Shown: positions 2,353 to 64,000 of the stretch, one piece after another | Position numbering within the stretch: position 1 is the stretch's first letter | How the letters are laid out: each line of letters starts with the position of its first letter | Source: Candidatus Anderseniibacteriota bacterium | GTDB taxonomy: Bacteria > Patescibacteriota > JAUYIX01 | NCBI GenBank assembly: GCA_046350905.1 | Contig: JAXLZN010000002.1 | Coordinates: 65,293 to 129,292 of the forward strand | Length of the DNA stretch: 64,000 bases | Reading direction: 5' to 3' | Program-made: the position numbers and the translations under genes | The notes under the pieces: model-generated | The model's input: the letters and a program-made list of their open reading frames with translations, nothing else | Told to the model about the DNA's origin: nothing | The model's database searches: none

Positions 2353-2388
<36 letters not shown>

Positions 2389-2394
2389 TCCCCA

Positions 2395-2429
<35 letters not shown>

Positions 2430-2790
2430 TCCCGAGCGAGGTATAACGCGTTAACGACTCAGAGCGTGTCGAACGCGAAGCCTGGTACCCATCGTTTACG
2501 GCGTGGTTCCTGGGGTATCTAATCCGGAATTCCGCTCCCCACGCTTTCGTCCCTGGATGTCAGTGTTGGCCAGCTGACTGCCTTCGCAATTGGTGTTCTT
2601 CCCGATCTTAACGCATTTCACTGCTACACCGGGAGTTCCATCAGCCTCTCCGACCTCGTCTGGTATCCAGGCCAGATCGACGGTTGAGCCGTCGGATTTT
2701 AAGCTCGACTTTCGTAACCATTTGCCGGACGCTTTACGCCCAATGATTCCGGAAAACGCTCGAGGTCTCTGTATTACCGCTGCTGCTGGC

Positions 2791-49185: not shown

Positions 49186-49974
49186 CTAGTCGCGCGCACT
49201 CTGCTGCCAGAACGAATTGAATAGGGCGCGCAGCATGCCGACGATGTACTCGTCCGTGATGACAACCGCGATGGGCGTCTTGGGTTGCCACAGCACCACC
49301 TTGTTGGCAAAGAGCTGAATCCCGGTGACAAACGGTGTCACTCCACGTAGTACCCGGGTTTCTCGCAGCTCGGCGACGTCCTTTCCCTTGAGGGTCTCCG
49401 TATCGGGGCTCGGCAGGAGCAGCGCATTAATCTTGATGCCCTTGCGCACGCGTGTGGCGATCCAACGCCGTTCCTCCGCCCACGAGATAAAGCCGATAAA
49501 ATCCTTAGCCGAACCCAGGAACTCCGTCGTCCCCTTGGCCTCATCGAGGATCTGGTAGAAGAGCTTGAGAAACTGATCACGCCCCTCCAGCACCTGGACC
49601 TGCGTCGCGGCGCTGCCCTGCCGGTACATGGCGAGCAAGTCGGGGAGTGCCCCCACGATGTCTTGGTCGTAGGTAGCGAGCGACTCACGCTTCTTACGTA
49701 GCAGCTCGCGCACGGTCGTGGGTGGTTCGACCACAAAGGTGCGTGCGTAGCGCCTGCGTTCCGAAAAGCGTGCCAACCCCTTACGCTCGAGGCCCTGGAT
49801 GAGCTTGTACATGTTGGGTCTCGAGATGCCGAGTCCTTTGGAGAGGGCGGCTAGCGACGCCGGCCCCATTGCCAGCGATAGCACGTAGAGCGCCGTTTCC
49901 TGTTCCGTAAGCCCCAGTTCCCGCAGCGAACTGTACAAGAGACGTTTAACTTGGCTTTGGCTGAGCTTGGCCAT
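49186..49974 (-). CDS. TrmB-family transcriptional regulator (paralog 1)
   Basis: 262-aa ORF with an N-terminal winged HTH (LGLTEQETALYVLSLAMGPASLAALSKGLGISRPNMYKLIQGLERKGLA) plus a TrmB-type C-terminal domain. Same architecture as 57894..58709. Confidence 0.8.
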   Translation of the reverse strand: MAKLSQSQVKRLLYSSLRELGLTEQETALYVLSLAMGPASLAALSKGLGISRPNMYKLIQGLERKGLARFSERRRYARTFVVEPPTTVRELLRKKRESLATYDQDIVGALPDLLAMYRQGSAATQVQVLEGRDQFLKLFYQILDEAKGTTEFLGSAKDFIGFISWAEERRWIATRVRKGIKINALLLPSPDTETLKGKDVAELRETRVLRGVTPFVTGIQLFANKVVLWQPKTPIAVVITDEYIVGMLRALFNSFWQQSARD

Positions 49975-50014
49975 GTCTATCTAATATAAGTATATAGATA
50001 GTATACACATATAA

Positions 50015-50073
50015 TAAATAAAGTCAATACAAAGCCAAATAGTATTGACTAATACGCTATAGTGCGCTATACG
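50015..50073 (+). promoter_or_regulatory. shared operator-like block plus candidate promoter (cassette 1)
   Basis: TAAATAAAG-N13-AAATAG-TATTGACT (50015-50050) matches 58781-58815. There is a dyad AGTCAATA/TATTGACT (50022-29/50043-50). TTGACT (50045-50), 17-nt spacer, TATACG (50068-73). A 5'-UTR hairpin CCAAAC/GTTTGG lies at 50082-50100. GACAAAGGAGA lies at 50127-50137. Confidence 0.5.
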
Positions 50074-50143
50074 TACCGGTTCCAAACAAAAGCCGTTTGG
50101 ACCTCTCGCAAGGGAGAATGTTCCTCGACAAAGGAGACTTATC

Positions 50144-50383
50144 ATGAAGATGAACTGGTCAGACATGAAGACCCTGCCCCGACGTTCCGAGAGGGACGGC
50201 GAATACCTCCTTGGTTTTGGTTTCGTGTTTCCCGACGAGTTCGTCGGTGAGGCCGAGGACCCGGAAGCGCCTCCAAGATTCATCAGCGGTGGGTGGACCA
50301 GGGCGGGGGTGACTGTCTTTCGTGATCGCGACGGCAGCCTGTACGCGGTGCCGTGCGAGGTATTCACCGGATGCAGTGGATGA
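50144..50383 (+). CDS. hypothetical 79-aa protein (first cistron of cassette 1)
   Basis: ATG lies 6 nt after AAGGAGA. MKMNWSDMKTLPRRSERDGEYLLGFGFVFPDEF...GCSG. No family recognised. Confidence 0.55.
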   Translation: MKMNWSDMKTLPRRSERDGEYLLGFGFVFPDEFVGEAEDPEAPPRFISGGWTRAGVTVFRDRDGSLYAVPCEVFTGCSG

Positions 50384-50411
50384 GCCTCTGGGTTAGACAG
50401 ATTTCCTGTGC

Positions 50412-50512
50412 GCAACGCAGCTGCGCAATGCTGCGACCGTTCGGCCAACATACATCGTTTTGGTTGGCCCTCCGTCAGAGCTGCCCTTGTCCGGCGGCTC
50501 TGACGGGGAAAC
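50412..50512 (+). promoter_or_regulatory. conserved three-hairpin RNA element, copy A (candidate cis-regulatory RNA)
   Basis: Aligns with 60550-60643. P1 at 50416-21/50430-35, P2 at 50443-49/50463-69, P3 at 50472-85/50493-506. Ends GGGGAAAC, 4 nt before the ATG at 50517. Confidence 0.6.
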
Positions 50513-50516
50513 ACAC

Positions 50517-51983
50517 ATGACCAAGCAACCAACCATCAAGAAATTAAAGAAAGTTGTCGTACTCGACACTATTTTTTTCTACCCCGAGCACCGGGCGGTC
50601 TTGGAGCAGCTCGCGGATGAAGTCATCGAGTACCCCTCGAGCCTGCCGGAGTCGCTCGAACGGCAGTACGTCGACAACCCGGAGCTATTCCGCAACGTTC
50701 GTTGCTACACGGAGCTCGGCGCCAACAATTCCTCGCTCCAGCTCCTCATGAACCGCATCGATGGCGCCGACTGTGTCATCAGCTGCTGGACGTGCATTCC
50801 TGACGAGATTCTCAAGCTCAACCCGCAGCTCAAGCTGATCGTCTTCTGGACGCACGAGAAGGAGCACCGCCTCAACCTCAAGCTCGCCGAGCAGTTCGGC
50901 ATCACCGTGACAAACATTCCCGACTACGGCACTGACGCGGTCGCGGAGGTCGTCTTTGCGGGACTGCTCGAGGTGCTCGCCAAGAACTACGTTACGCACA
51001 CGCTGCCGCAGAACGAGGAAAGCCTCGCCCTCACGGTCATGCACGAGCTGCTCCGCCGCCGCCGCATGCTCGACCGCAACGAGAAGTACACGCGGGCTGG
51101 GAAGTTCGTGCACCACTTCCACAAGCTCGGCAAGATCACCTTTGATCCCGGGCAGCGGACGCTCGATGAACTTATTCCAGAACGGCTGCTCGCGCGCGCC
51201 GGCGTAGCGCTCATCGGACAGCAGCCGTACGCACATCTCCGCACGTGGTTGCGAGCCTTTGAGGTGGTTGTCGATGAGCTGCCTGTGTTTGACGCGAGCA
51301 AGGCGGAGTTCTACCGCACGCTCGCCCGAAATGACTTCGTCGTGATCAGCAGCAATGAGCTCGATCCGAAGCTCGTGCAGAAAATCAATCTGCTCGCGGG
51401 TGTCAAGGTCGTCGACCTTGCGCAGCTCAAGACGATCGACTGGAGCGTCGCGGGCAAACGCTTTGGCGTGCTCGGTCTCGGCCGCATTGGTTCCAAAGTG
51501 GCGCGGGTCGCGCGCGACGTTGGATTTGAAGTGCAGTTCGCCGCGCGGGTCCCTGCTGCTCGTAGCGACCACCGCCACGTCTCAGTCAGTGAGCTGCTCG
51601 CAACTTCTGACGTGCTCTCGGTGCACCTTCCGGCGCACAAAGCCGACAACTTTTTGTCGGCCGATAAGCTCGCGCTCCTCAAGAAGGGCGGCATCTTCAT
51701 CAACACCGCTGACGGCAACATCACCGACACCGCCAAGCTGACCGAGCTCCTCAGCGCGAACCACGTGCTGGCCTACCTCGACGTCTACCCCGGCCTGCCG
51801 CGCAAGGATGTGTTCGGCTTGCCAATGGAGGACAAAGCGGACTGGAAACTCAAGGCTGCGCTCCCGCGCCACGTGCTCGCCTACCGCGCGGGCTGGAAGA
51901 CGCAGGAATCAATTCGAGTCAAAACCTTTGAGCTGCTCGGCCACATGGTCGACTACCTCACCTCGCACCCCCATGCCCACTGA
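50517..51983 (+). CDS. atypical D-isomer-specific 2-hydroxyacid dehydrogenase-family protein with large internal insertion
   Basis: Catalytic-domain pattern (..LKLIVFW..FGITVTNIPDYGTDAVAEVVFAGLL) and NAD fold GVLGLGRIGSKVARVARDVGFEV. More than 100 extra residues separate them. INTADGN replaces the family NxxRG motif. Confidence 0.7.
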   Translation: MTKQPTIKKLKKVVVLDTIFFYPEHRAVLEQLADEVIEYPSSLPESLERQYVDNPELFRNVRCYTELGANNSSLQLLMNRIDGADCVISCWTCIPDEILKLNPQLKLIVFWTHEKEHRLNLKLAEQFGITVTNIPDYGTDAVAEVVFAGLLEVLAKNYVTHTLPQNEESLALTVMHELLRRRRMLDRNEKYTRAGKFVHHFHKLGKITFDPGQRTLDELIPERLLARAGVALIGQQPYAHLRTWLRAFEVVVDELPVFDASKAEFYRTLARNDFVVISSNELDPKLVQKINLLAGVKVVDLAQLKTIDWSVAGKRFGVLGLGRIGSKVARVARDVGFEVQFAARVPAARSDHRHVSVSELLATSDVLSVHLPAHKADNFLSADKLALLKKGGIFINTADGNITDTAKLTELLSANHVLAYLDVYPGLPRKDVFGLPMEDKADWKLKAALPRHVLAYRAGWKTQESIRVKTFELLGHMVDYLTSHPHAH

Positions 51984-52842
51984 ACGCCAAACGCGAGCAA
52001 CCTTCAACCGGCTCAAGCGGTTCTACGACGCGAGCTGGGACCCCAAACGTAAGACGCTCCACGTCGGTCTGTTCCGACAAGCGGACGACTCCCTGCAGCG
52101 TGCCTACGCGAACGCGACGAGCTACCTGCTCGAGCTCGTCAACGAGCAGCGGCGCATCACCGCGCAATCGGTTGTGCTCGACGTTGGCTGCGGTACAGGA
52201 CAAACGTTGCTCGACCTGTGTGCACGCGTTGGCTGCCGTGGCGTCGGCCTCGATCTGAGCGACGCGCAGGTTTCGCACGCGCGGGCTGACCTCCGCGCCC
52301 GGAATGCGCTGCGAGTCAAGCGCAACCTGCCAAAGCTGCGCTGCACGTTCATCCGCGGCAGTGCGAGCGTGCTCACGCGCCACGTCGGGGCCCGGCCGGA
52401 GTTCACGCACGTGATCAGCCAGGACGCGCTCTTCCTCGCAGCCAACAAGCAGCGCGCGTTCCAGGGCATCGCTACGGTACTTGTCCCAGGCGGCGTGGTC
52501 GGCATCGCAGACTTCCTGCAGCAGGCCTCTGCCGCACGCTACAGTTCGCCCGCCCGTCGCGCGATCTTCAAGGTGGTCAACTGGCAGGAGGGTTTGTCGT
52601 TCGAGCGGTACCAGCGTGCGCTACGTACAGTCGGACTCGACGTCGTCCACGCCGAGCAACGCGATCGCGACATGATCAAGACGTACACGCTGCTCGTCCG
52701 GCAGCTCGCAGCGTTCATCGACCGTCACCCAACCTACCGCACGCTGCGCGAACGGTACCAGAGCATCGTTGCTGCGGTGCGCGCAGGCAAGATGGGGTGG
52801 GCGCTCTGCATCGCGCGCAAGCCGCTCACCGCACGCCAATGA
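51973..52842 (+). CDS. class I SAM-dependent methyltransferase
   Basis: ATG at 51973 overlaps the upstream stop by 11 nt. VLDVGCGTGQTLLDL (motif I), GVGLDLS, and LVPGGVVGIADF (post-II). The N-terminal HVGLF....SLQRA is typical of small-molecule MTases. Confidence 0.8.
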   Translation: MPTERQTRATFNRLKRFYDASWDPKRKTLHVGLFRQADDSLQRAYANATSYLLELVNEQRRITAQSVVLDVGCGTGQTLLDLCARVGCRGVGLDLSDAQVSHARADLRARNALRVKRNLPKLRCTFIRGSASVLTRHVGARPEFTHVISQDALFLAANKQRAFQGIATVLVPGGVVGIADFLQQASAARYSSPARRAIFKVVNWQEGLSFERYQRALRTVGLDVVHAEQRDRDMIKTYTLLVRQLAAFIDRHPTYRTLRERYQSIVAAVRAGKMGWALCIARKPLTARQ

Positions 52843-53582
52843 AGTACGTCATCGGCAACTGGAAGATGAACCCGACCGAGCTGCCCCGCGCGCTCGAACT
52901 GATCCGCGCGACCGAGGCAGCAATCCCGGCCGGCACACCGCGCGGCTGCGTAGCGATCGCGGCACCGTTTGTGTACCTCCACCCGCTTGCCTGCGAGACC
53001 GCTGCCGTCGCACTCGCCGCGCAGGACACCTTCTGGGATCAGGCTGGCGCGTACACTGGGCAGGTCTCGCCCGCCATGCTGAAGGGTCTGGGCGTGCGGT
53101 ACGTCTTGATCGGCCACAGCGAACGCCGCACGCACGCATTTGAAACCGACGCACACATCACGCATAAGGTGCGCGCTGCTCTCGACGCCAATCTACGCGT
53201 GATCCTCGCGGTCGGCTCGCGCGCTCGATCAGAAGCAGCGGTCCTGCGTGACATCCGTCGGCAGCTGCGGGTGCTCGACGTACTCGGCAGCGGTCGTGCG
53301 CAGGGTCGCCGGGATTTGCTCATCGCGTACGAACCGCTCGTGGCGATCGGCACCGGGCAGGCGGCACCAGTCGACCACGTGCGTCGCGTCGCTGCAGAAA
53401 TCAGCAGACTGTCCGGGGCACCCGTGCTGTACGGCGGCAGCATCAGCCGCAAGAACGCGAGCACGTACCTCGCGCTGCCGGAGCTTGCTGGCGTGCTCGT
53501 CGGGAGCGCGAGCCTGCGTGCGCGCGAGTTCGCTGCAATTATCCAGGCTGCCGAGCAACTCTCCCACCACCATGACTCCTAA
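52839..53582 (+). CDS. tpiA: triosephosphate isomerase
   Basis: ATGA overlap with the methyltransferase stop. IGNWKMN, IGHSERR, YEPLVAIGTG and YGGS motifs. The loop-6 Trp of the usual EPxWAIGTG is Val here. Confidence 0.8.
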   Translation: MKYVIGNWKMNPTELPRALELIRATEAAIPAGTPRGCVAIAAPFVYLHPLACETAAVALAAQDTFWDQAGAYTGQVSPAMLKGLGVRYVLIGHSERRTHAFETDAHITHKVRAALDANLRVILAVGSRARSEAAVLRDIRRQLRVLDVLGSGRAQGRRDLLIAYEPLVAIGTGQAAPVDHVRRVAAEISRLSGAPVLYGGSISRKNASTYLALPELAGVLVGSASLRAREFAAIIQAAEQLSHHHDS

Positions 53583-54222
53583 GAAAATCATTCTCGCCGG
53601 CACCAAGCCGCACTCCATCGCACGCGTCATTGGGCGCCACCTGCACGAGCAAGGCTGGGACGTGTGGCTCTACAGTCGTCACGCCAAGCGGGTCGAGCAC
53701 ACTCGCTGGCACGAGCGTCGCTGCGACGTAACGAAATCGGCTGACATTGCACGCCTCCTCTCAGAGGTTGGTACGCCGCAGGCTGTGGTGTTCAGCGCTG
53801 ATTCGGATGGCCACGGCACCATCCAACGTATTTCTGAACGGCGGCTCCGTGCGCTCATCGATGCCAAAGTGACGGGCAGCATTCTCTTGACCAAGCGCGT
53901 GCTCGCACATTCGCGCAAGCCGGTTTCACTCGTGTGGCTGATCGGCAAGATTGGGGTCAAGCCACAGGACCTCTTCCTGTACGGCGTCGTCAACGCGGCA
54001 GTCGTTGCCTTCGTAGATCAGCTCAAAGCGCTGGGTCGAACGGTGCGACCGTACATGCTGCCGCTCGGGGTGATCACGCCATCGACGCTCGGTGATGCGT
54101 ACCTGCGCCAGAATCCCGGGAAGCAGCTTGCGACGGATTCGCCGGTGAACGTCGCACGTTTCGTCGCTCGCATCCTCCGGGGGGGGGTACGCATCCGGTA
54201 CCGTACAAAGGGATCAATCTGA
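53572..54222 (+). CDS. short-chain dehydrogenase/Rossmann-like protein with degenerate SDR motifs
   Basis: ATG at 53572 overlaps the tpiA stop by 11 nt. KKIILAGTKPHSIARVIG sits in place of TGxxxGxG. LYGVVNAAV sits in place of YxxxK (no Lys). Confidence 0.55.
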   Translation: MTPKKIILAGTKPHSIARVIGRHLHEQGWDVWLYSRHAKRVEHTRWHERRCDVTKSADIARLLSEVGTPQAVVFSADSDGHGTIQRISERRLRALIDAKVTGSILLTKRVLAHSRKPVSLVWLIGKIGVKPQDLFLYGVVNAAVVAFVDQLKALGRTVRPYMLPLGVITPSTLGDAYLRQNPGKQLATDSPVNVARFVARILRGGVRIRYRTKGSI

Positions 54223-54325
54223 GATGGTGTAGCACCGCTCGCAATCCGTGATTGCCGTTGCTTGGTCGGGATGTGACCTGACCAGGAAACGGAAATTACG
54301 GAACGTCCTTCACAAGGGAGAAAAC

Positions 54326-54658
54326 ATGAAAAATACTGTGCAGCTCGGGTACCTGCTCCTCCTCATGCTCTCTTTTTTCAACGCGATATTCGGCTCCCAA
54401 CAGCCAACGCTTAGCAGGCTGCTCTGGGCTCTCTTCTACAGCACGTTGGTTATTGCATTCGTGCTGAAACCGCCCGCAGACGATGGGTATGTCGGTGCCG
54501 CCCGAATCGTATACGCGTTTGCGTTACTGATGATGGCTGGATCATGGATTGGTCGAAGTCCAACCCCCATCACGTCAATGTGGAGTGCCATTACTTTTGT
54601 TGTAGCTGCCGACAACTGGCTGCTCTGGAGTAAGTGCCGGACCGAGAGCGATCAGTAA
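54326..54658 (+). CDS. hypothetical small membrane protein (3-4 TM helices)
   Basis: ATG lies 6 nt after AAGGGAGAA. MKNTVQLGYLLLLMLSFFNAIF.. GC is lower than in the upstream operon. Confidence 0.6.
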   Translation: MKNTVQLGYLLLLMLSFFNAIFGSQQPTLSRLLWALFYSTLVIAFVLKPPADDGYVGAARIVYAFALLMMAGSWIGRSPTPITSMWSAITFVVAADNWLLWSKCRTESDQ

Positions 54659-54682
54659 CGTCTTGAAATCTGACGTCGCAGT

Positions 54683-54724
54683 GCCGCCTAGTAGGTCTTC
54701 GGGCTGAACGGCGGCTTCTCTTTG
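54683..54724 (+). terminator. terminator-like hairpin after cassette 1
   Basis: GCCGCC (54683-88) pairs with GGCGGC (54710-15), followed by TTCTCTTT. Confidence 0.45.
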
Positions 54725-54811
54725 GCAAGAACTATGGGGAGCCACCTCCACGCGTGCAGCTGTCCATGCCAACACCCTCATGGTGATCTTCGAGATCGGC
54801 TGGACAGCGGC

Positions 54812-56308
54812 CTACAAACCGCTGCGGCCAAACTTCTTCTCAGATTCGTCGAACTTCCTCTTGAGCTCTTCTGAGCGAAAGAATACATGGCGAGCAGGGT
54901 CGTAGAGAAACCCCATCTGCTCGAACCCCTCGGGCGTGGCGCGTGGATCGCCTGGCGGTAAGCGAAACACTGCTGCCATCTGCTCGAGTGTGTAACGAGG
55001 AATCCAGGTGGCGGGCTGCTCTTGCAGCTGCGACGTTAGCGCGAGCATCCGTTTGCTGACCGAGGCGACTGTATCGTCCGCTGAAATGGGAACCCGCAGA
55101 GAGGCCTCAATGCGCTGCCCGACTTCTTCGACCACTCCTATCCGTCGCACGATGGCACGGTTCGCTTGTGAGAGGTGGTCCCAGCCGATGGTGATCGCAC
55201 CCTCGTTGCCCACGTTCTTAGCGTTGGCTGTGGACATGAGCGTCTCGATGTTCTTGTCGAAGAGCTCCTCTACCGCTGGTATGAGGGGCGGCTCAATCAC
55301 TTCATGAATGAGGCTGCGTTCGGTGAGCAATGTACTACCGGATAGCTCAATGGGCTGCACAGCACGCATGGACGGCGACAGAGGTTCGACCTGGTCCGAC
55401 CCTTCAGCCTCGTCGATGGGCTCTACGGCGCTCTCATTGGGCCAAGGCTCGCGGTTGTCAAAGTAAAGGCCGCCATCGCGCACGGCCTGTTTGGCATCGC
55501 TGCCTTTCATGCTCGGCGCCCTATTGAAGAGCATGACTAGGTCGAACTTCTCCGTCCGCTCCTTGAACTGACTTAACGTTTCTGGCAGGAGGGTAACGAC
55601 GTAGTCCACGCCGCCATGCTTAAAGTGGAGCGTCCTGTGGGTTGTATCGTAGCGGGCCTGCCGGTCGTAGCTGCTCTTGATGCGGTCAACCAGAGCCGCG
55701 ACGTGGCGGTCATCAAGTACGGGATCAACCAGCGTGATGTCTCGGGCACCTGCCAGAATCGCCAGCTCGACGTCGTCCGCTGAACCAAAGTACACGGCCC
55801 GCCGGTAGTGCTCCGGCTCACCTGTAGCAGTGGCATGCTCACTGATCATTTGAGCAAAATGCAGCTTGTCGCGCTTGATCGTGTCCGCAAAGCCAATTGA
55901 GTGGACCTGTAAGTTTCTGGCTAGCACCTGTTCTGCAGGTGGGAGTTTCTCGACTTGGCGCTCGAATTCACGCCGGGTAAGCTCGGCGTTCGCATACATA
56001 TCGGCGAAATCGACGATGTTTTGGTCAAGCGCTGCCCGGTCGACGTGCGCTGCATCAAGCTCGTTCATCGCCGCGTGTGTCTCTATGGCACGCTCGAGCA
56101 CTCCGTTGAGGGTCTCATCGTCGATCTGCGGATGACCGGCCTTCCAACGTTCGGCAGAAACGGTTTGACGGTTCGTAGCCTCCTCAGTCTCGAGCTGCGC
56201 AGGTTGTTCGCCAGGCTGCGACGGCGGCAGGATGCCCTCGTCCTCTCGAGGATCTGGGGCAGGTGCATTCTCTTTCTTAGTGGCCATGCCTGTATGGTAC
56301 TCCTCCAT
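54812..56308 (-). CDS. hypothetical 498-aa protein (acidic N-terminus; possible Rossmann-like core)
   Basis: Intact ORF in a lower-GC region. AVYFGSADDVELAILAGARDITLVDP resembles a nucleotide/SAM-binding beta-alpha-beta strand. No family recognised. Confidence 0.55.
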   Translation of the reverse strand: MEEYHTGMATKKENAPAPDPREDEGILPPSQPGEQPAQLETEEATNRQTVSAERWKAGHPQIDDETLNGVLERAIETHAAMNELDAAHVDRAALDQNIVDFADMYANAELTRREFERQVEKLPPAEQVLARNLQVHSIGFADTIKRDKLHFAQMISEHATATGEPEHYRRAVYFGSADDVELAILAGARDITLVDPVLDDRHVAALVDRIKSSYDRQARYDTTHRTLHFKHGGVDYVVTLLPETLSQFKERTEKFDLVMLFNRAPSMKGSDAKQAVRDGGLYFDNREPWPNESAVEPIDEAEGSDQVEPLSPSMRAVQPIELSGSTLLTERSLIHEVIEPPLIPAVEELFDKNIETLMSTANAKNVGNEGAITIGWDHLSQANRAIVRRIGVVEEVGQRIEASLRVPISADDTVASVSKRMLALTSQLQEQPATWIPRYTLEQMAAVFRLPPGDPRATPEGFEQMGFLYDPARHVFFRSEELKRKFDESEKKFGRSGL

Positions 56309-56516
56309 TCTGCTTGCGCGTGAGCTTCTTTCAACCTTCCGGCAGTACTCTTTACATTTCGCGCAGCATGAACAAGTTCGCTCAGCACCTCGAATAACGC
56401 GGGCCCCTTTACGTATTCACGCAATATGGTTTGATGCGTGCATGGGTGTGGAAACTCCCGGACCAGGCGAAGCTGGGAACGCAGACAAATCAATTGTACG
56501 AGAGCGCGAGGCGGCC

Positions 56517-56969
56517 ATGCAGCGCTACGCCGGCCGCACGTTCAAGACTGAGAAGGGATGGACCTACACGTACGATGACCGCGGGCGTACGACGCGACAG
56601 CAGGCTGAAACCGGACACACGCACGCCCCGCAAGATCTCACGGTTTTTGTCGAAATGAACGTAGAAGAGAAACTATCCTTTGCTGCCGCAATGCATGCAG
56701 AAAATGACGACCCGGCATCAAAGGAAAAGGTTTACGTCGTTGAACGAGGCTCCGACAATCAGCCTCGGATCGTGGAATCGTGGGCAGATATTACCGACCC
56801 ATCGAAGCTATCTATTGCGATTGTGCGTGATGGCAAAATGCTGAGGTTCAAACCGGTCACGCTTCGGCCTAGGGTTGGTTCGTACGTCTTTGATACGAGG
56901 CTATTTCGAGACCGGCACGGCAAGTCGTACAAAGAGAGGCACTTGGGGCACAGAGTTACTGAAGTATAG
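56517..56969 (+). CDS. hypothetical 150-aa protein (alternative start 56442)
   Basis: MQRYAGRTFKTEKGWTYTYDDRG..., with GAGG 5 nt upstream of the ATG. No family recognised. Confidence 0.45.
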   Translation: MQRYAGRTFKTEKGWTYTYDDRGRTTRQQAETGHTHAPQDLTVFVEMNVEEKLSFAAAMHAENDDPASKEKVYVVERGSDNQPRIVESWADITDPSKLSIAIVRDGKMLRFKPVTLRPRVGSYVFDTRLFRDRHGKSYKERHLGHRVTEV

Positions 56970-57020
56970 GTAGTAGAAAAAGTCTTCGGTTAGCTGATGC
57001 TGGGCCGAATATGCTCTACG

Positions 57021-57057
57021 TTCGCTGCACCACTGGCTCGATAAGTTTTTCCGCTAG
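57021..57057. repeat. direct repeat copy 2: orphan hppA 3' fragment
   Basis: 57025-57057 is identical to 48329-48361. TTCGCTG (57021-27) matches 48311-17 if 14 nt (GGCAGTTTGCCCTG) are deleted. There is no hppA body upstream. Confidence 0.95.
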
Positions 57058-57081
57058 ACTGCAGGATCTCGAAGAGCGAAC

Positions 57082-57107
57082 AGAGCGCGGCCGGTAGGCC
57101 GCGCTCT
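57082..57107. terminator. strong hairpin (probable original hppA terminator; also directly follows the stop of the convergent 57111 gene)
   Basis: AGAGCGCGGCC-GGTA-GGCCGCGCTCT, an 11-bp perfect stem. The T-tract is weak on both strands. Confidence 0.5.
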
Positions 57108-57110
57108 TGC

Positions 57111-57884
57111 CTATTGAGCGCTGTCTGTTTGCGTAGAGGATGGGGCCCAGGTAAATCGAACATTTGCGTCGTAGTAGTCCAGCGAACCGTGGCCGGAGTA
57201 CTCCCACCCTTCCGTCGCTAGGATGCCGCGGGGAGATGGCGTAAGGGTGTGCGAGGGTCCTTCCAAAGAATCATCCAGTCCCAAGCCAATTTTCAGCATA
57301 GCCTTATCGTAGTAGGCATCTAAGAACTTTGGCATGGTGAGTTCGCTCAATCGATAATCACCGATAGGACCCTTCACTGGCCCCGGCTTTTGTTCAAAAT
57401 CGGCAATTGCGCTTTTAAGCTCCTCAGGGGGGTTTCCAGAAAAGATTCGTTCCACGTATTCTTTTGCGAGTTCGGGTAACTTGTCATATCGCCCTTTGAT
57501 TGACGGCTCTCTGGAAACAAGGGCCCAGCTTCGTCTTACGGAGTCGTTGAAATCGTCACGTGAAACAAACTCACCGCCGTAGTATGCCTGCTCACCTTTT
57601 GGAACATGCCTCAACACAAGCTTGGAAAGTCTTTCCGCAGTAAGCGGCGCTCCCTCCTCGTCATGTTGAACCCTGAAAATGAGAACGAGGTCATTCTCCT
57701 TGGCGACATCAATGTCTCTCTTGGAGAAGGGTAATGGAGGAATATCGCGTTCAGGAATCTCGATTTTGAGAAACTCAGAAACTTGCTTAGGCCCGATAAC
57801 ATCCCTCCCGAGTATACTTTCCGCGTATTCCAGGTTGGCCTTTTCGTTCTTGCCTTCTGGATTGATGCTTCCGATTTCGCGCAC
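57111..57884 (-). CDS. hypothetical 257-aa protein, co-oriented 9 nt downstream of TrmB paralog 2
   Basis: Intact ORF with low GC. No family recognised. Confidence 0.55.
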   Translation of the reverse strand: MREIGSINPEGKNEKANLEYAESILGRDVIGPKQVSEFLKIEIPERDIPPLPFSKRDIDVAKENDLVLIFRVQHDEEGAPLTAERLSKLVLRHVPKGEQAYYGGEFVSRDDFNDSVRRSWALVSREPSIKGRYDKLPELAKEYVERIFSGNPPEELKSAIADFEQKPGPVKGPIGDYRLSELTMPKFLDAYYDKAMLKIGLGLDDSLEGPSHTLTPSPRGILATEGWEYSGHGSLDYYDANVRFTWAPSSTQTDSAQ

Positions 57885-57893
57885 GGCTTATTG

Positions 57894-58709
57894 TTAGGTC
57901 TTACTGCTTGAGGATACTCCAGCCCACGCCAGCTCAAAGATCATGACCATCATGTCGTGAATGGTTTTGTCCTCGATGATCGTAGCAGCAAACTGAGGAC
58001 CGCTGAAGTTGATTATCGAGACCTTGTTGATACCATAGACGGTAATGTCGCTCTTATACGGAAAGAGCTTCTGCGGCACGTGCCGGACTTTTGGCCAAAT
58101 CTTCTTTGAGTAGCCTGCGTAGATGGTCTTGCTGTAGTCCACATCGACTTCGGTGTAGGGCAGCACGGCTCGGGCTGTGATCGACAGCTTCTCTTTCCTA
58201 CGGATGTACGTGTGAATGAACTTCTCGGGCAGGAACTTCAGCAGATCCGCAGTGTTCGCAAATGCCAGCATTTCGTAGGGCCCCTTCCCTGATACGTGGT
58301 CCTCGAAGACCTTCAGGACGCCCTCTTTACCCTCAAAGAACCTGACAATCGGCTTGTTAGCGGCGTGCGAGTAGAGCCCCTCCAGCGTAGGGAGGAGAGC
58401 CTGCATGCTCTCGAGGTCTCGCTTGGCGAGGGTGATACGAGACTGCGCATGCCGTTCTAGGCTCTTGGGGTTCTCAACCTGGTAGAAGAGCTTGTTGCGC
58501 TTCTCAAGCTCAGAAACGAGTCCTTTGACGGCCAGGTTCTCCAGCACTTTGTAGGTAGTGCTGCGGTTGAGCTTGGTGAGTTCCGCAACCTTGGATGGGT
58601 AGGCCCCACCTGCTTGGAGGAGGGCAGCGTAGACAGCAGCCTCCTTTCCAGCCAGCCCGGCTTTCCTGAGCTGTTTTTGGATGTTGCTGTCTTCAGTAGC
58701 CATCTGCAA
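57894..58709 (-). CDS. TrmB-family transcriptional regulator (paralog 2)
   Basis: 271-aa ORF with a wHTH (AGLAGKEAAVYAALLQAGGAYPSKVAELTKLNRSTTYKVLENLAVKGLV) and a C-terminal domain colinear with 49186..49974. Confidence 0.8.
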   Translation of the reverse strand: MQMATEDSNIQKQLRKAGLAGKEAAVYAALLQAGGAYPSKVAELTKLNRSTTYKVLENLAVKGLVSELEKRNKLFYQVENPKSLERHAQSRITLAKRDLESMQALLPTLEGLYSHAANKPIVRFFEGKEGVLKVFEDHVSGKGPYEMLAFANTADLLKFLPEKFIHTYIRRKEKLSITARAVLPYTEVDVDYSKTIYAGYSKKIWPKVRHVPQKLFPYKSDITVYGINKVSIINFSGPQFAATIIEDKTIHDMMVMIFELAWAGVSSSSKT

Positions 58710-58780
58710 ACCAGTCTACGCTGTATTACCAATTTTGTCAATTCTAACGAACAAAATGAAAGTAGAATGAAATATTTGTT

Positions 58781-58836
58781 TAAATAAAGCCATAAACAGC
58801 AAATAGATTGGCATTGTAGAAGCACAAAATATGAAT
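58781..58836 (+). promoter_or_regulatory. shared operator-like block plus candidate promoter (cassette 2)
   Basis: TAAATAAAG-N11-AAATAG-ATTGGCA (58781-58813). TTGGCA (58808-13), 17-nt spacer, ATGAAT (58831-36). A 5'-UTR hairpin GTTTCC/GGAAAC lies at 58855-70. GACAAAGGAGA lies at 58880-90. Confidence 0.5.
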
Positions 58837-58899
58837 TCCGAGCTACAAAGATCTGTTTCCAAAGGGAAACAAATTCATTGACAAAGGAGATAGAACGCC

Positions 58900-60519
58900 A
58901 TGGCTAAGCCCAAGGTGCTGTTCGTCAAGGCCGCGCAGGAGAGCGATGCTACCTGGGACCCGATCCGGATGAGCCCTAACCAGGGCCTCTGGTACCTGGC
59001 CTCGGAGCTGCGCGAGCAGGGCTACTACGTGCGTCTCATCGATGAGACCACGCGCCACGGCGGACTCCACAAGCACTCCATGGTGCACCGCACGATCAAG
59101 CTGGCCACCAAGGCTGGCGAGGTCGACGAGGTGTACGAGGTGCCTGTGGTGACGCCGTTCGCCGATCATATCCGGAGCAAGATGGAAGACTTCGAGCGGC
59201 TCTCCCCTGGAGAGTTCGTCGAGAAGCACTCCGCCTTCCGGATTCCCGGCGAGATCAACCGCACGGTCGTCCGGACCGGCAACCCCATCGAGCACACGCT
59301 CGAGGACATCGAGCGGGAGCTGGCCAGCGGAGACGCGGTGATCGTGGGCATTCCGTTGCCTGCCACCTCGAACTACGTTTCGGCCACTCGGCTCGGCAAG
59401 GCCATCAAGGACACCTTCGGCCAGCACGTGAAGGTGATCTACGGTGGGCAGCACATCACGGCGATGCCGGGGCAGTTCCTCAAGGACAACCCCTGGGTCG
59501 ACGTGGCCGTGTGCGGGGATGCCGTGACGACGATCGAGCGGGCGCTCCAGTGCGCGCTCGATGGGACCACCAAGGTCGTCTGGAGGATGTGCGGGGATAA
59601 GACGGCGAGGCAGGAGGACATTTCCTGCTACCCGCTGCTCGACCCCACGCTCCTCGAGGAGAACGAGTACCCGACGCGCCCCAACCATACGTTCGATACG
59701 GATGGGCGCAGGTGGGTGGACTTCATGACCTCCAAGGGTTGCGGGCTGAGCTGCGAGTTCTGCGGCGTCAGCGGCATTCCCAAGGAGGAGAAGAAGTACT
59801 CGGCGATTCCGCTCGATAAGCTCGAGCAGCAGCTCTTGCTGTTCAAGCGGGCGGACATCTCCGAGCTCGTGATCCAGGACGACGCGGTCCTGTCGAACAA
59901 GCTTCTCCCGGGGGCAGTCGCGCTCTTCAAAAAGCACGGCTTCTCCTGGCAGAACAACGGCGGCATCGAGTACGAGAGGATCGACGATGCAACCGTGGAG
60001 CAGTGGAGCGCGTACAACCGCTCGGGCGAGGGTCGCACCACCGCGCTCTACGTGCCCTTCAATCCACGCGAGTGGAACGAGGGGCAGAGCGCTGGCGTGA
60101 CCCAGACCCAGCGGCGGCCCCACGTGGTCGAGCTCCTCAAGAAGCTGCGCGAGTCTGGCTGCTACGTGTTCTCTTCGGAGATCATCGGGCAACCGACCGA
60201 GCGGCGCGAGGAGTCCGGGCGCGATACGGCCCGGTACATCGACCTGGTGCGTGAGGGCTACATCGATCAGGCCCTCACGTTTTCCGCCACAGTCCTGCCG
60301 GGCACCAAGTGGTCATGGAAGCACGGCGCCCTCGTGGTCAGTAGCATTGACTACGTCGGGTACAGCCTGTTCACCACGCACCACCGCACCTACTGCATCT
60401 CCGACCCGCGCGAGATCGAGCGCTGGGTGGTTGAGCGGAACAAGACGCTCAACGAGGTGCAGCGCTCCTACGCCTGGGGCACGGCGTTTCCAAACGTCGG
60501 GCCGCAGGTGGGTGAGTGA
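58900..60519 (+). CDS. B12-binding-domain radical SAM enzyme (class B-like)
   Basis: Intact 539-aa ORF. N-terminal Rossmann-like cobalamin-binding-type region (VLFVKAA...GLWYLASELREQGYYVRLID..., ..VIVGIPL..., VIYGGQHITAMP). Radical SAM CxxxCxxC (GCGLSCEFCG, 59740-59763). Confidence 0.8.
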   Translation: MAKPKVLFVKAAQESDATWDPIRMSPNQGLWYLASELREQGYYVRLIDETTRHGGLHKHSMVHRTIKLATKAGEVDEVYEVPVVTPFADHIRSKMEDFERLSPGEFVEKHSAFRIPGEINRTVVRTGNPIEHTLEDIERELASGDAVIVGIPLPATSNYVSATRLGKAIKDTFGQHVKVIYGGQHITAMPGQFLKDNPWVDVAVCGDAVTTIERALQCALDGTTKVVWRMCGDKTARQEDISCYPLLDPTLLEENEYPTRPNHTFDTDGRRWVDFMTSKGCGLSCEFCGVSGIPKEEKKYSAIPLDKLEQQLLLFKRADISELVIQDDAVLSNKLLPGAVALFKKHGFSWQNNGGIEYERIDDATVEQWSAYNRSGEGRTTALYVPFNPREWNEGQSAGVTQTQRRPHVVELLKKLRESGCYVFSSEIIGQPTERREESGRDTARYIDLVREGYIDQALTFSATVLPGTKWSWKHGALVVSSIDYVGYSLFTTHHRTYCISDPREIERWVVERNKTLNEVQRSYAWGTAFPNVGPQVGE

Positions 60520-60549
60520 CGTGCCACCGAGGATGTCGCATCAGCGACC

Positions 60550-60643
60550 GCAACGCAGCTGCGCAGCGCTGCGACATGGCCAACTCATTGATTAGTTGGC
60601 CCTCCGTCAGAGCCGCTCTTCTCGGCGGTTCTGACGGGGAAAC
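60550..60643 (+). promoter_or_regulatory. conserved three-hairpin RNA element, copy B
   Basis: P1 at 60554-59/60568-73, P2 at 60578-84/60595-601, P3 at 60604-16/60625-37, ending GGGGAAAC. Lies between the radical SAM stop and the 106-aa ORF. Confidence 0.6.
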
Positions 60644-60673
60644 CCGATCGTACATTAGAGAGGAGAAACCAAA

Positions 60674-60994
60674 ATGAACTCTGCCGAAAAGTTCGTGCGT
60701 TTGTCCGAGGCCAATTTGATCACCGAGTGCACCCAGATCAAGACCTCGTTCCACGACCTCAAGCGGCTGACCATCAACACGGTCGGCATGATGCGTATCC
60801 AGTTCCAGGGCGACGTGCCCCGGATGCGCACGCAGAACTGGGATGGTAGCTACGACGTGGACATCTACTCCGATAGCGTCGTGACCATTCACGACCAGCA
60901 CGGAGTCCACTGCTACGTCGTGACCTGGTCCAAGCGGAGCGACAAGCTGCCGACCACGCACATCCTGCCGCGCCTCCCGGAGGTCGAGGACTAG
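60674..60994 (+). CDS. hypothetical 106-aa protein (last cistron of cassette 2)
   Basis: ATG lies 8 nt after GAGAGGAGAAA. MNSAEKFVRLSEANLITECTQIKTSFHDL... No family recognised. Confidence 0.6.
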   Translation: MNSAEKFVRLSEANLITECTQIKTSFHDLKRLTINTVGMMRIQFQGDVPRMRTQNWDGSYDVDIYSDSVVTIHDQHGVHCYVVTWSKRSDKLPTTHILPRLPEVED

Positions 60995-61001
60995 CGGCAC
61001 T

Positions 61002-61033
61002 AAGGGCGCCCGGAAAGATTTCCGTGCGCCCTT
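61002..61033 (+). terminator. terminator hairpin after cassette 2
   Basis: AAGGGCGC...GCGCCCTT with an inner CGGAA/TTCCG stem, followed by TAATGTT. Confidence 0.55.
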
Positions 61034-61166
61034 TAATGTTGAGTTCGCAACCTGAGAATGTGACTTGACTATTTGGCGCAGCCGGCTACACTGCGGTCAA
61101 AGGTTCCCGCCTGATGACAAGAGCTCCTGGGCTCTCCCGCAAGGGTAGTCGGGCGGGTCATTCGTA

Positions 61167-61799
61167 TTAACTGACTTCCAGAGCGTCGATAGGTACGTTG
61201 CCCAACGCTCGCATCGGCCGTTCTTCTCCACGCGACAAACTGACATATCGTGCCCATGACACATAATCGGCGATCTGGCCGTTGAGATCGGCCATCGTAC
61301 TGTGGAAGAACACGTGAAACGGTTTTCCTGTCGTTTTCAAGACCGGCTTAATCGCTTTCAACAATGCACGTTGCTCTTTCCGGATAAGCGTCTTGTCGAA
61401 GATAACCACTATTCTTTTTAGCGGTGTCGTTGACCAAATCTGTAGCGTTCGAGTAAGCAGTGCACGGCCAAATCGAGCATACATAGACACGGGGTCCCGC
61501 AAATTAGTGGGGAGCAGCCGTTTCTGAGCGTGCGCAACGCAGCACCTAATTCCGTGTGTACTGTTGATAGTGGAGAAGACTTGATCGCGCACTAATTGCG
61601 CATCTGGTGCGGCATGAAAAAAGGGAACGTCGATGCCACGCGACAGAAGCCAGTACCGCAGCTGTAGCAACGGACGCGCCGATGCGATGGGCTGCATGGT
61701 CGACATAGATCCCATCACAAAGTACTTGGTGCCAAGCTCAGAAAAATCGAAGTTGCCAGACTCGTCAATGAAAACGAATAACGTGCCTTGTGTGTTCAC
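61167..61799 (-). CDS. DUF3800-family protein
   Basis: 210-aa ORF with low GC. N-terminal LFVFIDESGNFDF matches the DUF3800 IDESG signature. Confidence 0.65.
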   Translation of the reverse strand: MNTQGTLFVFIDESGNFDFSELGTKYFVMGSMSTMQPIASARPLLQLRYWLLSRGIDVPFFHAAPDAQLVRDQVFSTINSTHGIRCCVAHAQKRLLPTNLRDPVSMYARFGRALLTRTLQIWSTTPLKRIVVIFDKTLIRKEQRALLKAIKPVLKTTGKPFHVFFHSTMADLNGQIADYVSWARYVSLSRGEERPMRALGNVPIDALEVS

Positions 61800-61885
61800 C
61801 GGTAGAGGCTACTGAATCCGACCTTACGAGAAGTTAAAGTCTAGAGTTTGTTCGTACAGAAAGAACGCGCTAGCCTCTGGCGGGC

Positions 61886-63190
61886 ATGGATGTAAAGGTC
61901 CACAAGCTACCCACGTCGACCGTCGAGCTGATGGTCGAAGCCAGCCCTGACGAGCTGAAGGCACACGAGGATCGCGCGCTGCGGTCGCTCGCCAGCAAGC
62001 TGCAGCTGCCGGGATTCCGTCCGGGCAAGGTGCCGCTCAGCTTGGCCCGCAAGCACCTCGACCCGGCCAAGCTGCTGGCCGCGGTGGTCGACCTGGCCGT
62101 CCCGCAGCTCTACGCCAAGGCTGTCATCGACAACAAGCTCGAGACGATCGGCCCGCCGCAGATTCAGATTCTGAAAATCGCGCCGGGTAACCCGCTGGTC
62201 TTCCGTGCCACGGCCGCGATTCTGCCCGAGTTCAAGCTGCCGGACTACCGTAAGGTGCGCGTCGAACAAAAAAAGGCCGAGGTCACCGACGACCAGGTCG
62301 AACGCCTGATTCGTGACCTGCGCCGCGACCGTGCCAACGAAAAAACGGTCGACCGCGCCGCTGCCAAGGGCGACGTGGCCGTGATCGACTTTGACATCAC
62401 CCAGAACAAGGTCCCGATCGAACGCGGCCAGGGCCGCGAGCAGCCGCTCCTCATCGGCGACGAAGCTTTTGTGCCCGGTTTTGAAGACAACCTGATTGGC
62501 CTCAAGGCTGGCGACGAGAAAGACTTCTCTCTCAAGTTCCCGGACGACTACGGCGCCAAGGTCTTAGCTGGCAAAATCGCCGAGGTGCACGTCAAGGTGC
62601 GCAAGGTCAACGAGCGCATCCAACCAGAACTCGACGATGCCTTTGCCAAGCAGGTCGGACAGTTCGCCTCGATGACAGATCTAAGGACGCAGCTCAAGAA
62701 GAACATGCAACTGGACGCCGAGGCGCGCGAACAGGAGCGCTACGAGGGCGAGGTGCTCAAGAAGTTGGCCGGGCAGACTACCGTGGAGGTACCGGACCCG
62801 CTGCTGCAGGGCGAGCTCGACAAAATGGCGCGCGAACTCGAGGGCAGCCTGGCCCGTCAGGGCGCCAACCTGCAGGACTACTTGACCAGCATTAAGAAAA
62901 GCTTAGACGAGCTCAAGAAAGGCTGGGTCGAGCAGGCCAAGCAGCGCATCGTGATCGGCCTGCTGCTCCGAGCCATCGCCAAAGAAGAGGAGATCAAGGT
63001 CGAGGACAGCGAGGTGCAAGACGAGGTCAACGCCACGCTCAAACAGAACCCCGGCAACGTCGAGGTTGAGAAAACGGTGCGCGGCAAGCCCTACCAAGAC
63101 TACGTGCGGGAGATTGTTCGCAACAGAAAGACGATCGAGCTACTATCCTCGCTAGCGCAAGGCAAGACACCGGCCGACTCACCGCGGTAG
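61886..63190 (+). CDS. tig: trigger factor
   Basis: 434-aa ORF. N-terminal ..LPGFRPGKVP ribosome-binding signature, central FKBP-like region, C-terminal helical arms. Confidence 0.9.
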   Translation: MDVKVHKLPTSTVELMVEASPDELKAHEDRALRSLASKLQLPGFRPGKVPLSLARKHLDPAKLLAAVVDLAVPQLYAKAVIDNKLETIGPPQIQILKIAPGNPLVFRATAAILPEFKLPDYRKVRVEQKKAEVTDDQVERLIRDLRRDRANEKTVDRAAAKGDVAVIDFDITQNKVPIERGQGREQPLLIGDEAFVPGFEDNLIGLKAGDEKDFSLKFPDDYGAKVLAGKIAEVHVKVRKVNERIQPELDDAFAKQVGQFASMTDLRTQLKKNMQLDAEAREQERYEGEVLKKLAGQTTVEVPDPLLQGELDKMARELEGSLARQGANLQDYLTSIKKSLDELKKGWVEQAKQRIVIGLLLRAIAKEEEIKVEDSEVQDEVNATLKQNPGNVEVEKTVRGKPYQDYVREIVRNRKTIELLSSLAQGKTPADSPR

Positions 63191-63214
63191 TAGCCAGCGT
63201 CCGTAACCAAACTC

Positions 63215-63775
63215 ATGGCAAAGCTCGTCAAAGAGATCATGACTACCGAGGTCGTCAGCGTGCAGCCAGGCACGACGATCGCGAAGTTGGCAGCCGCAAT
63301 GGTGGACCACAACCTGACCGGCGTGCCGGTCGTGCGCAAGGGCGCTGTAGTTGGCATGGTCACCGACAGCGACCTGGTCGCGCAGAAGTCCAACATCCAC
63401 GCGCCCCAGTTTTTGTCGGCGCTGCACTCGTTCATCATGCTGCGCTCGAGCAAGTCGGTCGAGGAGGAGATCAAGAAGCTGCTTGGCAGCAAAGCTGAGG
63501 ACATCATGACTTCGCCGATCGTGAGCGTGCGGTCGGGGGAGACGATCGCCAAGCTCGCCACGCTGATGGTCGAGACCAAGGCCAACCCCATCCCCGTCGT
63601 CGACAACGGTGCGCTCGTCGGCATCGTCAGCCGCCACGACCTGCTCAAGCTCATCGCCGACGAGGCCACCGCCAAGCCTGCACCGACCCCCGCACCCGGG
63701 AGCGAACCCGCCGCCGGACCCAGCAAGCCGGGCCCGAGCAAGCCGCAGGCTAAGCCCGCCAAGCCTAGCAAGTAG
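63215..63775 (+). CDS. CBS-pair domain protein with Pro/Ala/Lys-rich tail
   Basis: Two CBS repeats (IMTTEVVSVQPGTTIAKLAAAMVDHNLTGVPVV..; IMTSPIVSVRSGETIAKLATLMVETKANPIPVV..). Tail AKPAPTPAPGSEPAAGPSKPGPSKPQAKPAKPSK. Confidence 0.85.
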   Translation: MAKLVKEIMTTEVVSVQPGTTIAKLAAAMVDHNLTGVPVVRKGAVVGMVTDSDLVAQKSNIHAPQFLSALHSFIMLRSSKSVEEEIKKLLGSKAEDIMTSPIVSVRSGETIAKLATLMVETKANPIPVVDNGALVGIVSRHDLLKLIADEATAKPAPTPAPGSEPAAGPSKPGPSKPQAKPAKPSK

Positions 63776-63779
63776 GCGC

Positions 63780-64000
63780 GTGGTTAAGCTGCGCACGACA
63801 GTTCCGTCTGCTGCCGCCGCCAAGCGTGGCGCAGTGCGGCCGCGCATTGCTGCCCACCACGTCGGCATTGGTGCGCACGTTTCGATCGCGGGCGGCTACT
63901 GCCAGGCTTTGGACCGTGCCCACGAAGCCGGCCTCGACGCCATGCAGATTTTTACGTCCTCGCCCCGCAGTAAAGCGCGCCGCGAGATCAAGAAAGAAGA
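63780..64000 (+). CDS. nfo: deoxyribonuclease IV (endonuclease IV), 5' partial; start uncertain
   Basis: The open frame to the window end reads ..HVGIGAHVSIAGGYCQALDRAHEAGLDAMQIFTSSPR.., matching the Nfo N-terminal pattern (GAHVSxAGG...QIFTKSP). Confidence 0.65.
   Translation, partial: MVKLRTTVPSAAAAKRGAVRPRIAAHHVGIGAHVSIAGGYCQALDRAHEAGLDAMQIFTSSPRSKARREIKKE

Follow-up and report, generated by a model that had tools for sequence, protein, structure and literature searches.

Which gene, if any, works together with a cobalamin-type radical S-adenosylmethionine (SAM) enzyme in a genome of the candidate phyla radiation (CPR), and on what would such an enzyme act? The question is raised by a stretch of 64,000 nucleotides (the window; contig JAXLZN010000002.1, positions 65,293 to 129,292 of the forward strand) of a 130-kb contig in a metagenome-assembled genome of Candidatus Andersenbacteria, a CPR source as an earlier reading of the letters, here called the original prediction, had recognized. 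In it, a gene for a 539-amino-acid (aa) class-B enzyme, that is, one with a B12-binding domain (58900-60519, plus strand), is followed by an open reading frame (ORF) of 106 aa. The original prediction paired these two genes, offered the 106-aa protein as a partner, carrier or substrate of the enzyme, and held the function to be not inferable from the sequence. The analysis described below instead directs attention to a cassette of regulator and enzyme as the feature of note, rather than to the small ORF.

An NCBI entry with 100% identity to the 539-aa protein bears the name "cobalamin-dependent protein." Residues 127 to 214 of the enzyme matched the Pfam B12-binding domain PF02310 (E = 1.1e-11, 45 bits; cut-off, 32.1), and residues 277 to 438 matched Radical_SAM with 25 bits, slightly below the Pfam cut-off of 29.5. 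The CxxxCxxC motif of the radical SAM [4Fe-4S] cluster (C281, C285, and C288; CGLSCEFC) lies at 59740-59763 on the plus strand, exactly where the original prediction had seen it, and was invariant in 34 of 34 aligned family members. No other cysteine was kept across these members; the C-terminal 100 residues of the enzyme hold a single, unconserved cysteine, and Pfam gave no match there or elsewhere in the protein to a SPASM/twitch auxiliary-cluster domain. Because the motif cysteines are the only conserved ones, the enzyme would carry one Fe-S cluster and no SPASM/twitch domain, in agreement with the earlier remark that a C-terminal SPASM-like segment is missing. In the GG/GGxH part of the B12 motif, G182 and G183 were invariant in the family alignment and H185 was nearly so.

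An AlphaFold model of the enzyme, built on an alignment of 34 relatives, reached a predicted local distance difference test score (pLDDT) of 92.4 and displayed class-B architecture. When the model was compared with the PDB using Foldseek, class-B structures were returned with probability 1.0 and E values of 1e-13 to 1e-9; the top PDB matches were MgmA, AprD4, OxsB, TokK, TsrM, and CysS (TM-score, 0.46 to 0.6), with AprD4 and MgmA ranking highest, while TokK was the best PDB match by sequence when the family profile was used (E = 4e-13). All of these proteins share with the modeled enzyme an N-terminal Rossmann B12-type domain, then a partial TIM-barrel radical SAM domain with a single CxxxCxxC. 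The family differs from the solved class-B structures by an insertion of ~75 residues (residues about 50 to 125) that interrupts the Rossmann domain, by a distinct C-terminal domain bearing the family-specific motifs LPGT, SLFTTHHRT, and WGTAFPN, and by its sequence, which is 10 to 15% identical to theirs. As judged from sequence and model, the protein thus belongs to the radical SAM superfamily, with CxxxCxxC in a TIM-barrel-like core, and to class B, with a B12-binding Rossmann domain at its N terminus; actual binding of cobalamin is a prediction.

A search of 5.8 billion protein clusters retrieved 88 relatives (clusters at 90% identity). In the 34-member family alignment, mean column identity was 53%, bacterial and archaeal members were 40 to 47% identical, and many residues beyond the cofactor motifs were invariant. 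None of the curated NCBIfam class-B families reached its cut-off (best score, 26.9 bits; cut-offs, 250 to 700), so that the enzyme falls outside the characterized subfamilies, membership of which would have contradicted the original prediction; the class-B subfamilies compared were BchE, PhpK, Sden_1168, KedN5, the C-methyltransferases of ribosomally synthesized and posttranslationally modified peptides (RiPPs; TIGR03975/CxnA-like), the Mmp10/MgmA type, BzaD, and MJ_1487. Literature searches found no paper on this enzyme family. Going by these alignments, the enzyme belongs to a class-B subfamily that is small and tightly conserved and has no earlier description.

The family is concentrated in two groups, the CPR (Andersen-, Buchanan-, Uhr-, Berkel-, Azam-, Peri-, and Magasanikbacteria) and the DPANN archaea (Woese-, Pace-, Nano-, and Micrarchaeota). 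Free-living carriers form a single derived, monophyletic clade comprising three cultured Paenibacillus species, Limnospira/Arthrospira, Prosthecochloris, and metagenome contigs, so that cultivable hosts exist for the family (the cultured Paenibacillus and Limnospira). Three further metagenome-assembled genomes (loci L034, L038, and L039) are labeled "uncultured Gammaproteobacteria"; they encode several TrmB paralogues, their enzyme copies cluster with those of Uhrbacteria, and these bins may be misclassified CPR genomes.

Gene neighborhoods were compared in a set of 37 loci, one genome per species, supplemented with further loci from metagenome assemblies; the neighboring ORFs of all loci were clustered and their Pfam content was summarized. 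In about 25 of the 34 loci with upstream sequence, the immediate upstream gene encodes a divergent DNA-binding regulator. This regulator is a TrmB-family protein of 260 to 275 aa in CPR and other bacteria (15 such neighbors); in DPANN archaea, its place is taken by a tandem Lrp/AsnC protein that has ligand-binding domains and a length of ~323 aa (15 such neighbors). TrmB regulators are classically sugar sensors, and the usual ligands of Lrp/AsnC regulators are amino acids. No conserved protein or peptide partner was found downstream of the enzyme in the CPR or DPANN loci.

In the window, the regulator gene (57894-58709, minus strand) encodes 271 aa, and residues 14 to 78 place the product in the TrmB family by their match to the helix-turn-helix domain PF01978 (E = 7e-13, 48.7 bits; cut-off, 25.6). 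The match is confined to this region; the sugar-binding effector domain of TrmB/TrmBL1 was not matched, and the equivalog models for TrmBL1, TrmB, and TrmBL2 scored 15 to 21 bits (cut-offs, 500 to 650). Since the TrmB gene lies on the minus strand, the enzyme gene is divergent from it, across an AT-rich spacer of 190 bp, and is not downstream of it in one operon; the enzyme gene is, as originally noted, the first gene after the TrmB promoter region. Orthologues of this TrmB protein (46 to 69% identity) occupy the equivalent divergent position in loci L012, L002, and L038, and a TrmB gene is likewise present at that position in L054.

Alignment of the intergenic regions revealed an operator-like palindrome, TTTTGTCAATTCTAACGAACAAAA, at 58733-58756, which is a candidate TrmB binding site. 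The 24-nucleotide palindrome (TTTTGTCAAnnnTAACGAACAAAA) is almost invariant in four orthologous spacers (window, L012, L002, and L038), its cores TTTTGTCA and AACG.ACA.AA are invariant across all four, and its surroundings are AT-rich and poorly conserved. The motif overlaps a promoter-like -35 hexamer of the TrmB gene. A small hairpin or palindrome, TGTTTCC-AAAG-GGAAACA, was read by eye in the 5' leader of the enzyme gene (58854-58871, plus strand); at the aligned position, L002 has GTCTC-AAAT-GAGAC and L012 has GCTC...GAGC. The arrangement resembles TrmB- or Lrp/AsnC-regulated divergent repressor-enzyme cassettes in its shared spacer with a conserved palindrome, and it differs from TrmB cassettes in that the C-terminal domain of the window TrmB matches no known sugar-binding TrmB domain.

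Because two unrelated DNA-binding families fill one slot, these proteins would act as regulators and not as enzyme subunits. That bacteria and archaea each have a regulator at this position, from different families, indicates that the enzyme is self-contained and controlled locally in response to a ligand. Overall, we conclude from the compared gene orders that the conserved unit is a two-gene cassette of divergent regulator and enzyme. A conserved, individually regulated B12-type radical SAM enzyme common to CPR and DPANN organisms is unexpected cargo, as these organisms hold very few biosynthetic enzymes, and its presence there implies either scavenging of the cofactor or chemistry that is independent of cobalamin.

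A reading of the DPANN tandem Lrp/AsnC proteins as siroheme decarboxylases of the AhbA/B type was rejected: they scored 25 to 30 bits on those models (cut-offs, 125 to 140) versus 63 to 72 bits on Lrp, AsnC, LysM, and ChrS models, and the reading is also disfavored by the unrelated TrmB protein that fills the same position in bacteria. In one Nanoarchaeota locus (L044, 4588-7605), two tandem enzyme-family paralogues lie behind a single Lrp/AsnC regulator.

The original verdict that the function could not be inferred proved too pessimistic, as the gene context of the relatives provides a concrete lead toward tryptophan. A gene for tryptophanyl-tRNA synthetase (TrpRS) adjoins the enzyme gene in seven of the eight loci of the free-living clade (L009, L023, L028, L040, L050, L051, and L052). 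Three types of adjacent TrpRS (L009, 4920-5918; L023, 7584-8519; L052, 1896-2891) are mutually only 25 to 29% identical, and identities this low indicate at least three separate recruitments of TrpRS to the side of the enzyme. For the Limnospira TrpRS, the closest relatives with a name come from Patescibacteria, Geobacteraceae, and Halanaerobaculum (66 to 69% identity), not from cyanobacteria, which suggests an acquired extra copy. Genes of the tRNA_edit/YbaK type are present in L009, L046, L023, L028, L040, and L051, and SSF symporter genes in L009 and L046. The Paenibacillus operon is ordered enzyme, TrpRS paralogue, YbaK-like protein, binding protein of a TrpX-like tryptophan ABC transporter (349 bits), permease, ATPase, and hydrolase; the Limnospira locus holds TrpRS, enzyme, YbaK-like deacylase, and SSF symporter, and the Prosthecochloris locus holds enzyme, YbaK-like protein, SSF symporter, and methyltransferase. 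In L040 and L051, the enzyme-TrpRS pair adjoins an AgrCA-like LytTR two-component system.

On one metagenome contig (L050, 1-9184), the enzyme-TrpRS pair comes after genes for a nitroreductase, an AMP-ligase, a pterin-binding-like protein, a chorismate mutase, a ThiS-like carrier, Prok-JAB, ThiF, and an FrhB-like ferredoxin protein, a set that has the look of a cluster for the biosynthesis of an aromatic compound with sulfur in it. A known counterpart is the chuangxinmycin cluster, in which a B12 radical SAM methylase (CxnA) is co-located with a resistant TrpRS (PMC5925218). What the two have in common is an extra TrpRS encoded together with a class-B radical SAM enzyme, to which L050 adds the ThiS-like, JAB, and ThiF genes. 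The two systems differ in that CxnA has 623 aa and belongs to a TIGR03975-like family, for which the window enzyme scored 22 bits against a cut-off of 282, and in that the CPR and DPANN loci are without other genes of the chuangxinmycin pathway.

Two candidate interpretations of the gene context were discarded. A tRNA gene, which a Pyl-like cassette for genetic-code expansion would include, was detected by tRNA scan neither in any locus with enzyme and TrpRS nor at 50000-64000 of the window, and the class-V aminotransferase beside the L007 enzyme, considered as a possible kynureninase, is a SufS-type cysteine desulfurase.

The account that we favor, tentatively and with somewhat less than even confidence, is that a ligand-sensing regulator is coupled to a stand-alone class-B radical SAM enzyme that converts a small molecule, likely tryptophan or an analogue of it. 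The regulator, of the TrmB type in the window, would control the divergent enzyme gene through the operator-bearing shared spacer, and the small molecule would be converted in one step under this local control. Free tryptophan or a close analogue would be the likeliest class of substrate. Cobalamin-mediated C-methylation would be the likeliest chemistry, given the base rate among class-B enzymes, of which those characterized are mostly methyltransferases. An amino-acid analogue able to interfere with the synthesis of tryptophanyl-tRNA is probably either made or consumed in the reaction, which would explain the extra TrpRS, the YbaK-type aminoacyl-tRNA deacylase, and the tryptophan-type importers in free-living carriers. 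That such a substrate is feasible for class B is illustrated by TsrM, the tryptophan 2-C-methyltransferase of thiostrepton biosynthesis, which acts on free L-tryptophan by non-radical chemistry. TsrM was among the fold matches of the enzyme model (ranks 11 to 19); no relationship between the two is detectable by sequence, and its gene is located in a thiopeptide cluster and not, unlike genes of the family studied here, beside TrpRS, YbaK, or a local regulator. The three TrpRS recruitments (in Paenibacillus, Limnospira, and others) lead to a testable hypothesis, namely, that a tryptophan-analogue enzyme is tied to translation fidelity.

Several observations weigh against this proposal. The tryptophan link is confined to the one monophyletic free-living clade, whose enzymes are 40 to 42% identical to that of the window, and no TrpRS, YbaK, or transporter gene was found nearby in the CPR and DPANN loci; the extension to the CPR enzyme therefore draws on the compactness of the family, which is assumed to be isofunctional, and not on CPR gene context. 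Rfam searches with gathering and E-value thresholds, run on the window and on the Paenibacillus, Limnospira, and Prosthecochloris loci, detected neither a T-box nor a cobalamin riboswitch nor any other RNA family close to the genes; upstream of the Paenibacillus operons, no T-box or other tryptophan-sensing RNA was found. The direction of the reaction could be compatible with the making of a toxic analogue, the detoxification of one, or the salvage of tryptophan, and the importers in the operons fit toxin production and export poorly. Finally, use of cobalamin by the enzyme is predicted from sequence and model, and the match to AprD4 is a warning: AprD4 is a dehydratase whose B12-like domain reportedly binds no cobalamin, and as it is one of the two best structural matches, cobalamin binding cannot be assumed for the window enzyme.

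The same match is one argument for the likeliest alternative, according to which the substrate is a small molecule other than tryptophan, possibly converted without cobalamin in an AprD4-like dehydration or rearrangement, and the TrpRS link is a secondary specialization of the free-living carriers. We consider this unlikely, though it would suit the high ranks of AprD4 and MgmA, the lack of tryptophan-related genes near the CPR and DPANN members, the classical role of TrmB regulators in sugar sensing, and the fact that CPR and DPANN organisms are not known as makers of cobalamin. What tells against it is that a compact family with many invariant residues outside the cofactor motifs favors one function, that G182 and G183 of the B12 motif are invariant with H185 nearly so, and that TrpRS, recruited independently three times, would be difficult to account for if the enzyme had no activity related to tryptophan.

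Less likely still would be an enzyme that modifies a macromolecule of translation (tRNA-Trp, TrpRS, or a ribosomal component) and not a free amino acid. Conservation across domains is indeed high (40 to 47% identity between bacteria and archaea; mean column identity, 53%), the neighbors TrpRS and YbaK both bind tRNA, MiaB and RimO were among the fold matches of the enzyme model, and radical SAM RNA methylases of the Cfr/RlmN type offer a precedent. Against these points stand the ligand-sensing regulators (TrmB, and Lrp/AsnC with its ligand domain) and the amino-acid-type importers, which point to a small molecule; the loci with enzyme and TrpRS contain no tRNA gene, and Pfam detected no TRAM, PUA, or other RNA-binding domain in the enzyme.

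A bolder version of the favored tryptophan account, which we regard as improbable, is that the family makes a one-step tryptophan antimetabolite, for example, a C-methyl-tryptophan, that corrupts or blocks the synthesis of tryptophanyl-tRNA and that CPR and DPANN episymbionts deploy against hosts or competitors. Free-living acquirers would then have co-recruited an insensitive TrpRS, a trans-editing deacylase, and extra tryptophan import for self-protection, and the episymbionts would scavenge cobalamin from the host or the community.

It remains to place the 106-aa ORF (60674-60994, plus strand). GC content at third codon positions (GC3) was 0.91 in its frame versus 0.53 and 0.37 in the other frames, and the resemblance of this value to that of the enzyme gene (0.89) marks the ORF as a real coding gene. 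It is preceded by a strong Shine-Dalgarno-like sequence, GAGAGGAGAA, and followed by a terminator-like inverted repeat at 61002-61033 on the plus strand (15-nucleotide arms, 93% complementary, then TTTAATG), so the ribosome binding site and terminator of the original description were both recovered; a consensus terminator scan did not flag the repeat, whose T-run is short. The predicted structure is a small, seven-stranded beta-sandwich (pLDDT, 69 overall and 84 to 89 in the core) with weak, Ig-like fold matches (E >= 1e-3), unlike a RiPP precursor or a PqqD-like chaperone.

A word-indexed search of the 5.8 billion protein clusters retrieved the 106-aa protein itself alone, and an exhaustive phmmer search of 1.84 billion representative proteins returned one true homologue, P0090 (102 aa, 49% identity); three giant Ig/cadherin-repeat matches in that search were artefacts of summed weak repeat matches. 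P0090 is encoded on an incomplete contig of 1.8 kb, behind the same hairpin element as the one that follows the enzyme gene in the window, and the first 30 bases of this contig match the 3' flank of the L012 enzyme gene; hence, the adjacency may recur in one close relative. On the same contig (L049, 624-1178), the homologue is followed by a gene for an ORF6N (KilA-N-like, phage-associated) domain protein. Elsewhere the ORF is missing: downstream of the enzyme gene in L012 (enzyme 71% identical, complete flanks) lies a convergent triose-phosphate isomerase gene, in L002 (70% identical, complete flanks) an unrelated convergent gene, and tblastn of the 106-aa protein against 48 other loci found no homologue. 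No downstream small ORF on the same strand was found to be conserved across the family, nor any small gene kept beside the enzyme orthologues as a co-encoded substrate or carrier would be.

The hairpin element itself lies right after the enzyme stop codon (60520-60645, plus strand). The spacer that contains it (60520-60673, 154 bp) forms three to four strong hairpins (-71.4 kcal/mol, z = -5.0). The orthologues in L012 and L055 have the element behind their stop codons as well, that in L054 has part of it, and compensatory changes are seen: hairpin 2 reads GGCCAAC/GTTGGCC in the window and GGCCAAG/CTTGGCC in L055, and hairpin 3 reads CCGTCAGA/TCTGACGG in the window and TCATCAGA/TCTGATGG in L049. 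The L012 copy has a T-run after hairpin 2, and in this it resembles a terminator of the enzyme gene. Rfam gave no match for the element, and the sole match of a pattern scan of metagenomes (L053, an unrelated contig) was judged to be due to chance. The element is probably a 3' terminator, attenuator, or stabilizer, and we view it as structured 3' or intergenic sequence particular to the lineage and not as evidence of operon coupling. A second copy (50411-50515) is situated in the 5' leader of the gene for a 2-hydroxyacid dehydrogenase (about 50519-51983, plus strand), which is itself divergent from another TrmB-family gene (49186-49974, minus strand).

These results bear on the proposal that enzyme and 106-aa protein are a functional pair, in which the small protein would be a substrate, a carrier, or a chaperone. 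In its favor, the genes are same-strand neighbors of similar GC3, and the P0090 contig leaves room for one recurrence of the pair. We nevertheless find the pairing very improbable: the closest orthologues are not followed by the ORF, nor does any other locus contain it, the very finding that the original prediction had named as speaking against it; the single homologue among 1.84 billion proteins, the hairpin-filled spacer with its T-run terminator in L012, and the generic Ig-like sandwich fold point the same way, as do the absence of an RRE/PqqD-like domain and of SPASM from the enzyme. From its genomic distribution, the 106-aa ORF, although a genuine gene, is a neighbor specific to its lineage and lies outside the conserved system; it may have an association with the enzyme within its sub-lineage. 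Overall, the sequence features given in the original prediction are all confirmed, and its interpretation is partly supported: the two genes do stand side by side in this genome, their pairing is not conserved, and the role given to the 106-aa protein finds no support.

An antiphage defense or conflict system, in which the radical SAM enzyme makes an antiviral molecule, is scarcely credible, for although the family is spread patchily, in a manner suggestive of horizontal transfer, over CPR, DPANN, Firmicutes, Cyanobacteria, and Chlorobi, the block has a DUF3800 gene and genes of low GC3 at its sides, and PADLOC reported a match to PDC-M51A, that match is weak (29.9 bits) and confined to the generic B12/SAM region, no defense genes recur in the neighborhoods, and a search of viral contigs and plasmids found no relatives of the enzyme.

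The genes on either side of the block formed by TrmB, enzyme, and the 106-aa ORF (56232-57884 and 61167-61799) have GC3 values of 0.53 to 0.57, compared with 0.72 to 0.91 within the block; one encodes the DUF3800 protein and two are without a Pfam match, and they may be foreign insertions. At the other end of the window, the 16S rRNA gene (1809-4173, minus strand) gave two Rfam matches (1809-2983 and 3620-4173), and a group I intron match (3384-3689) lies between the two parts.

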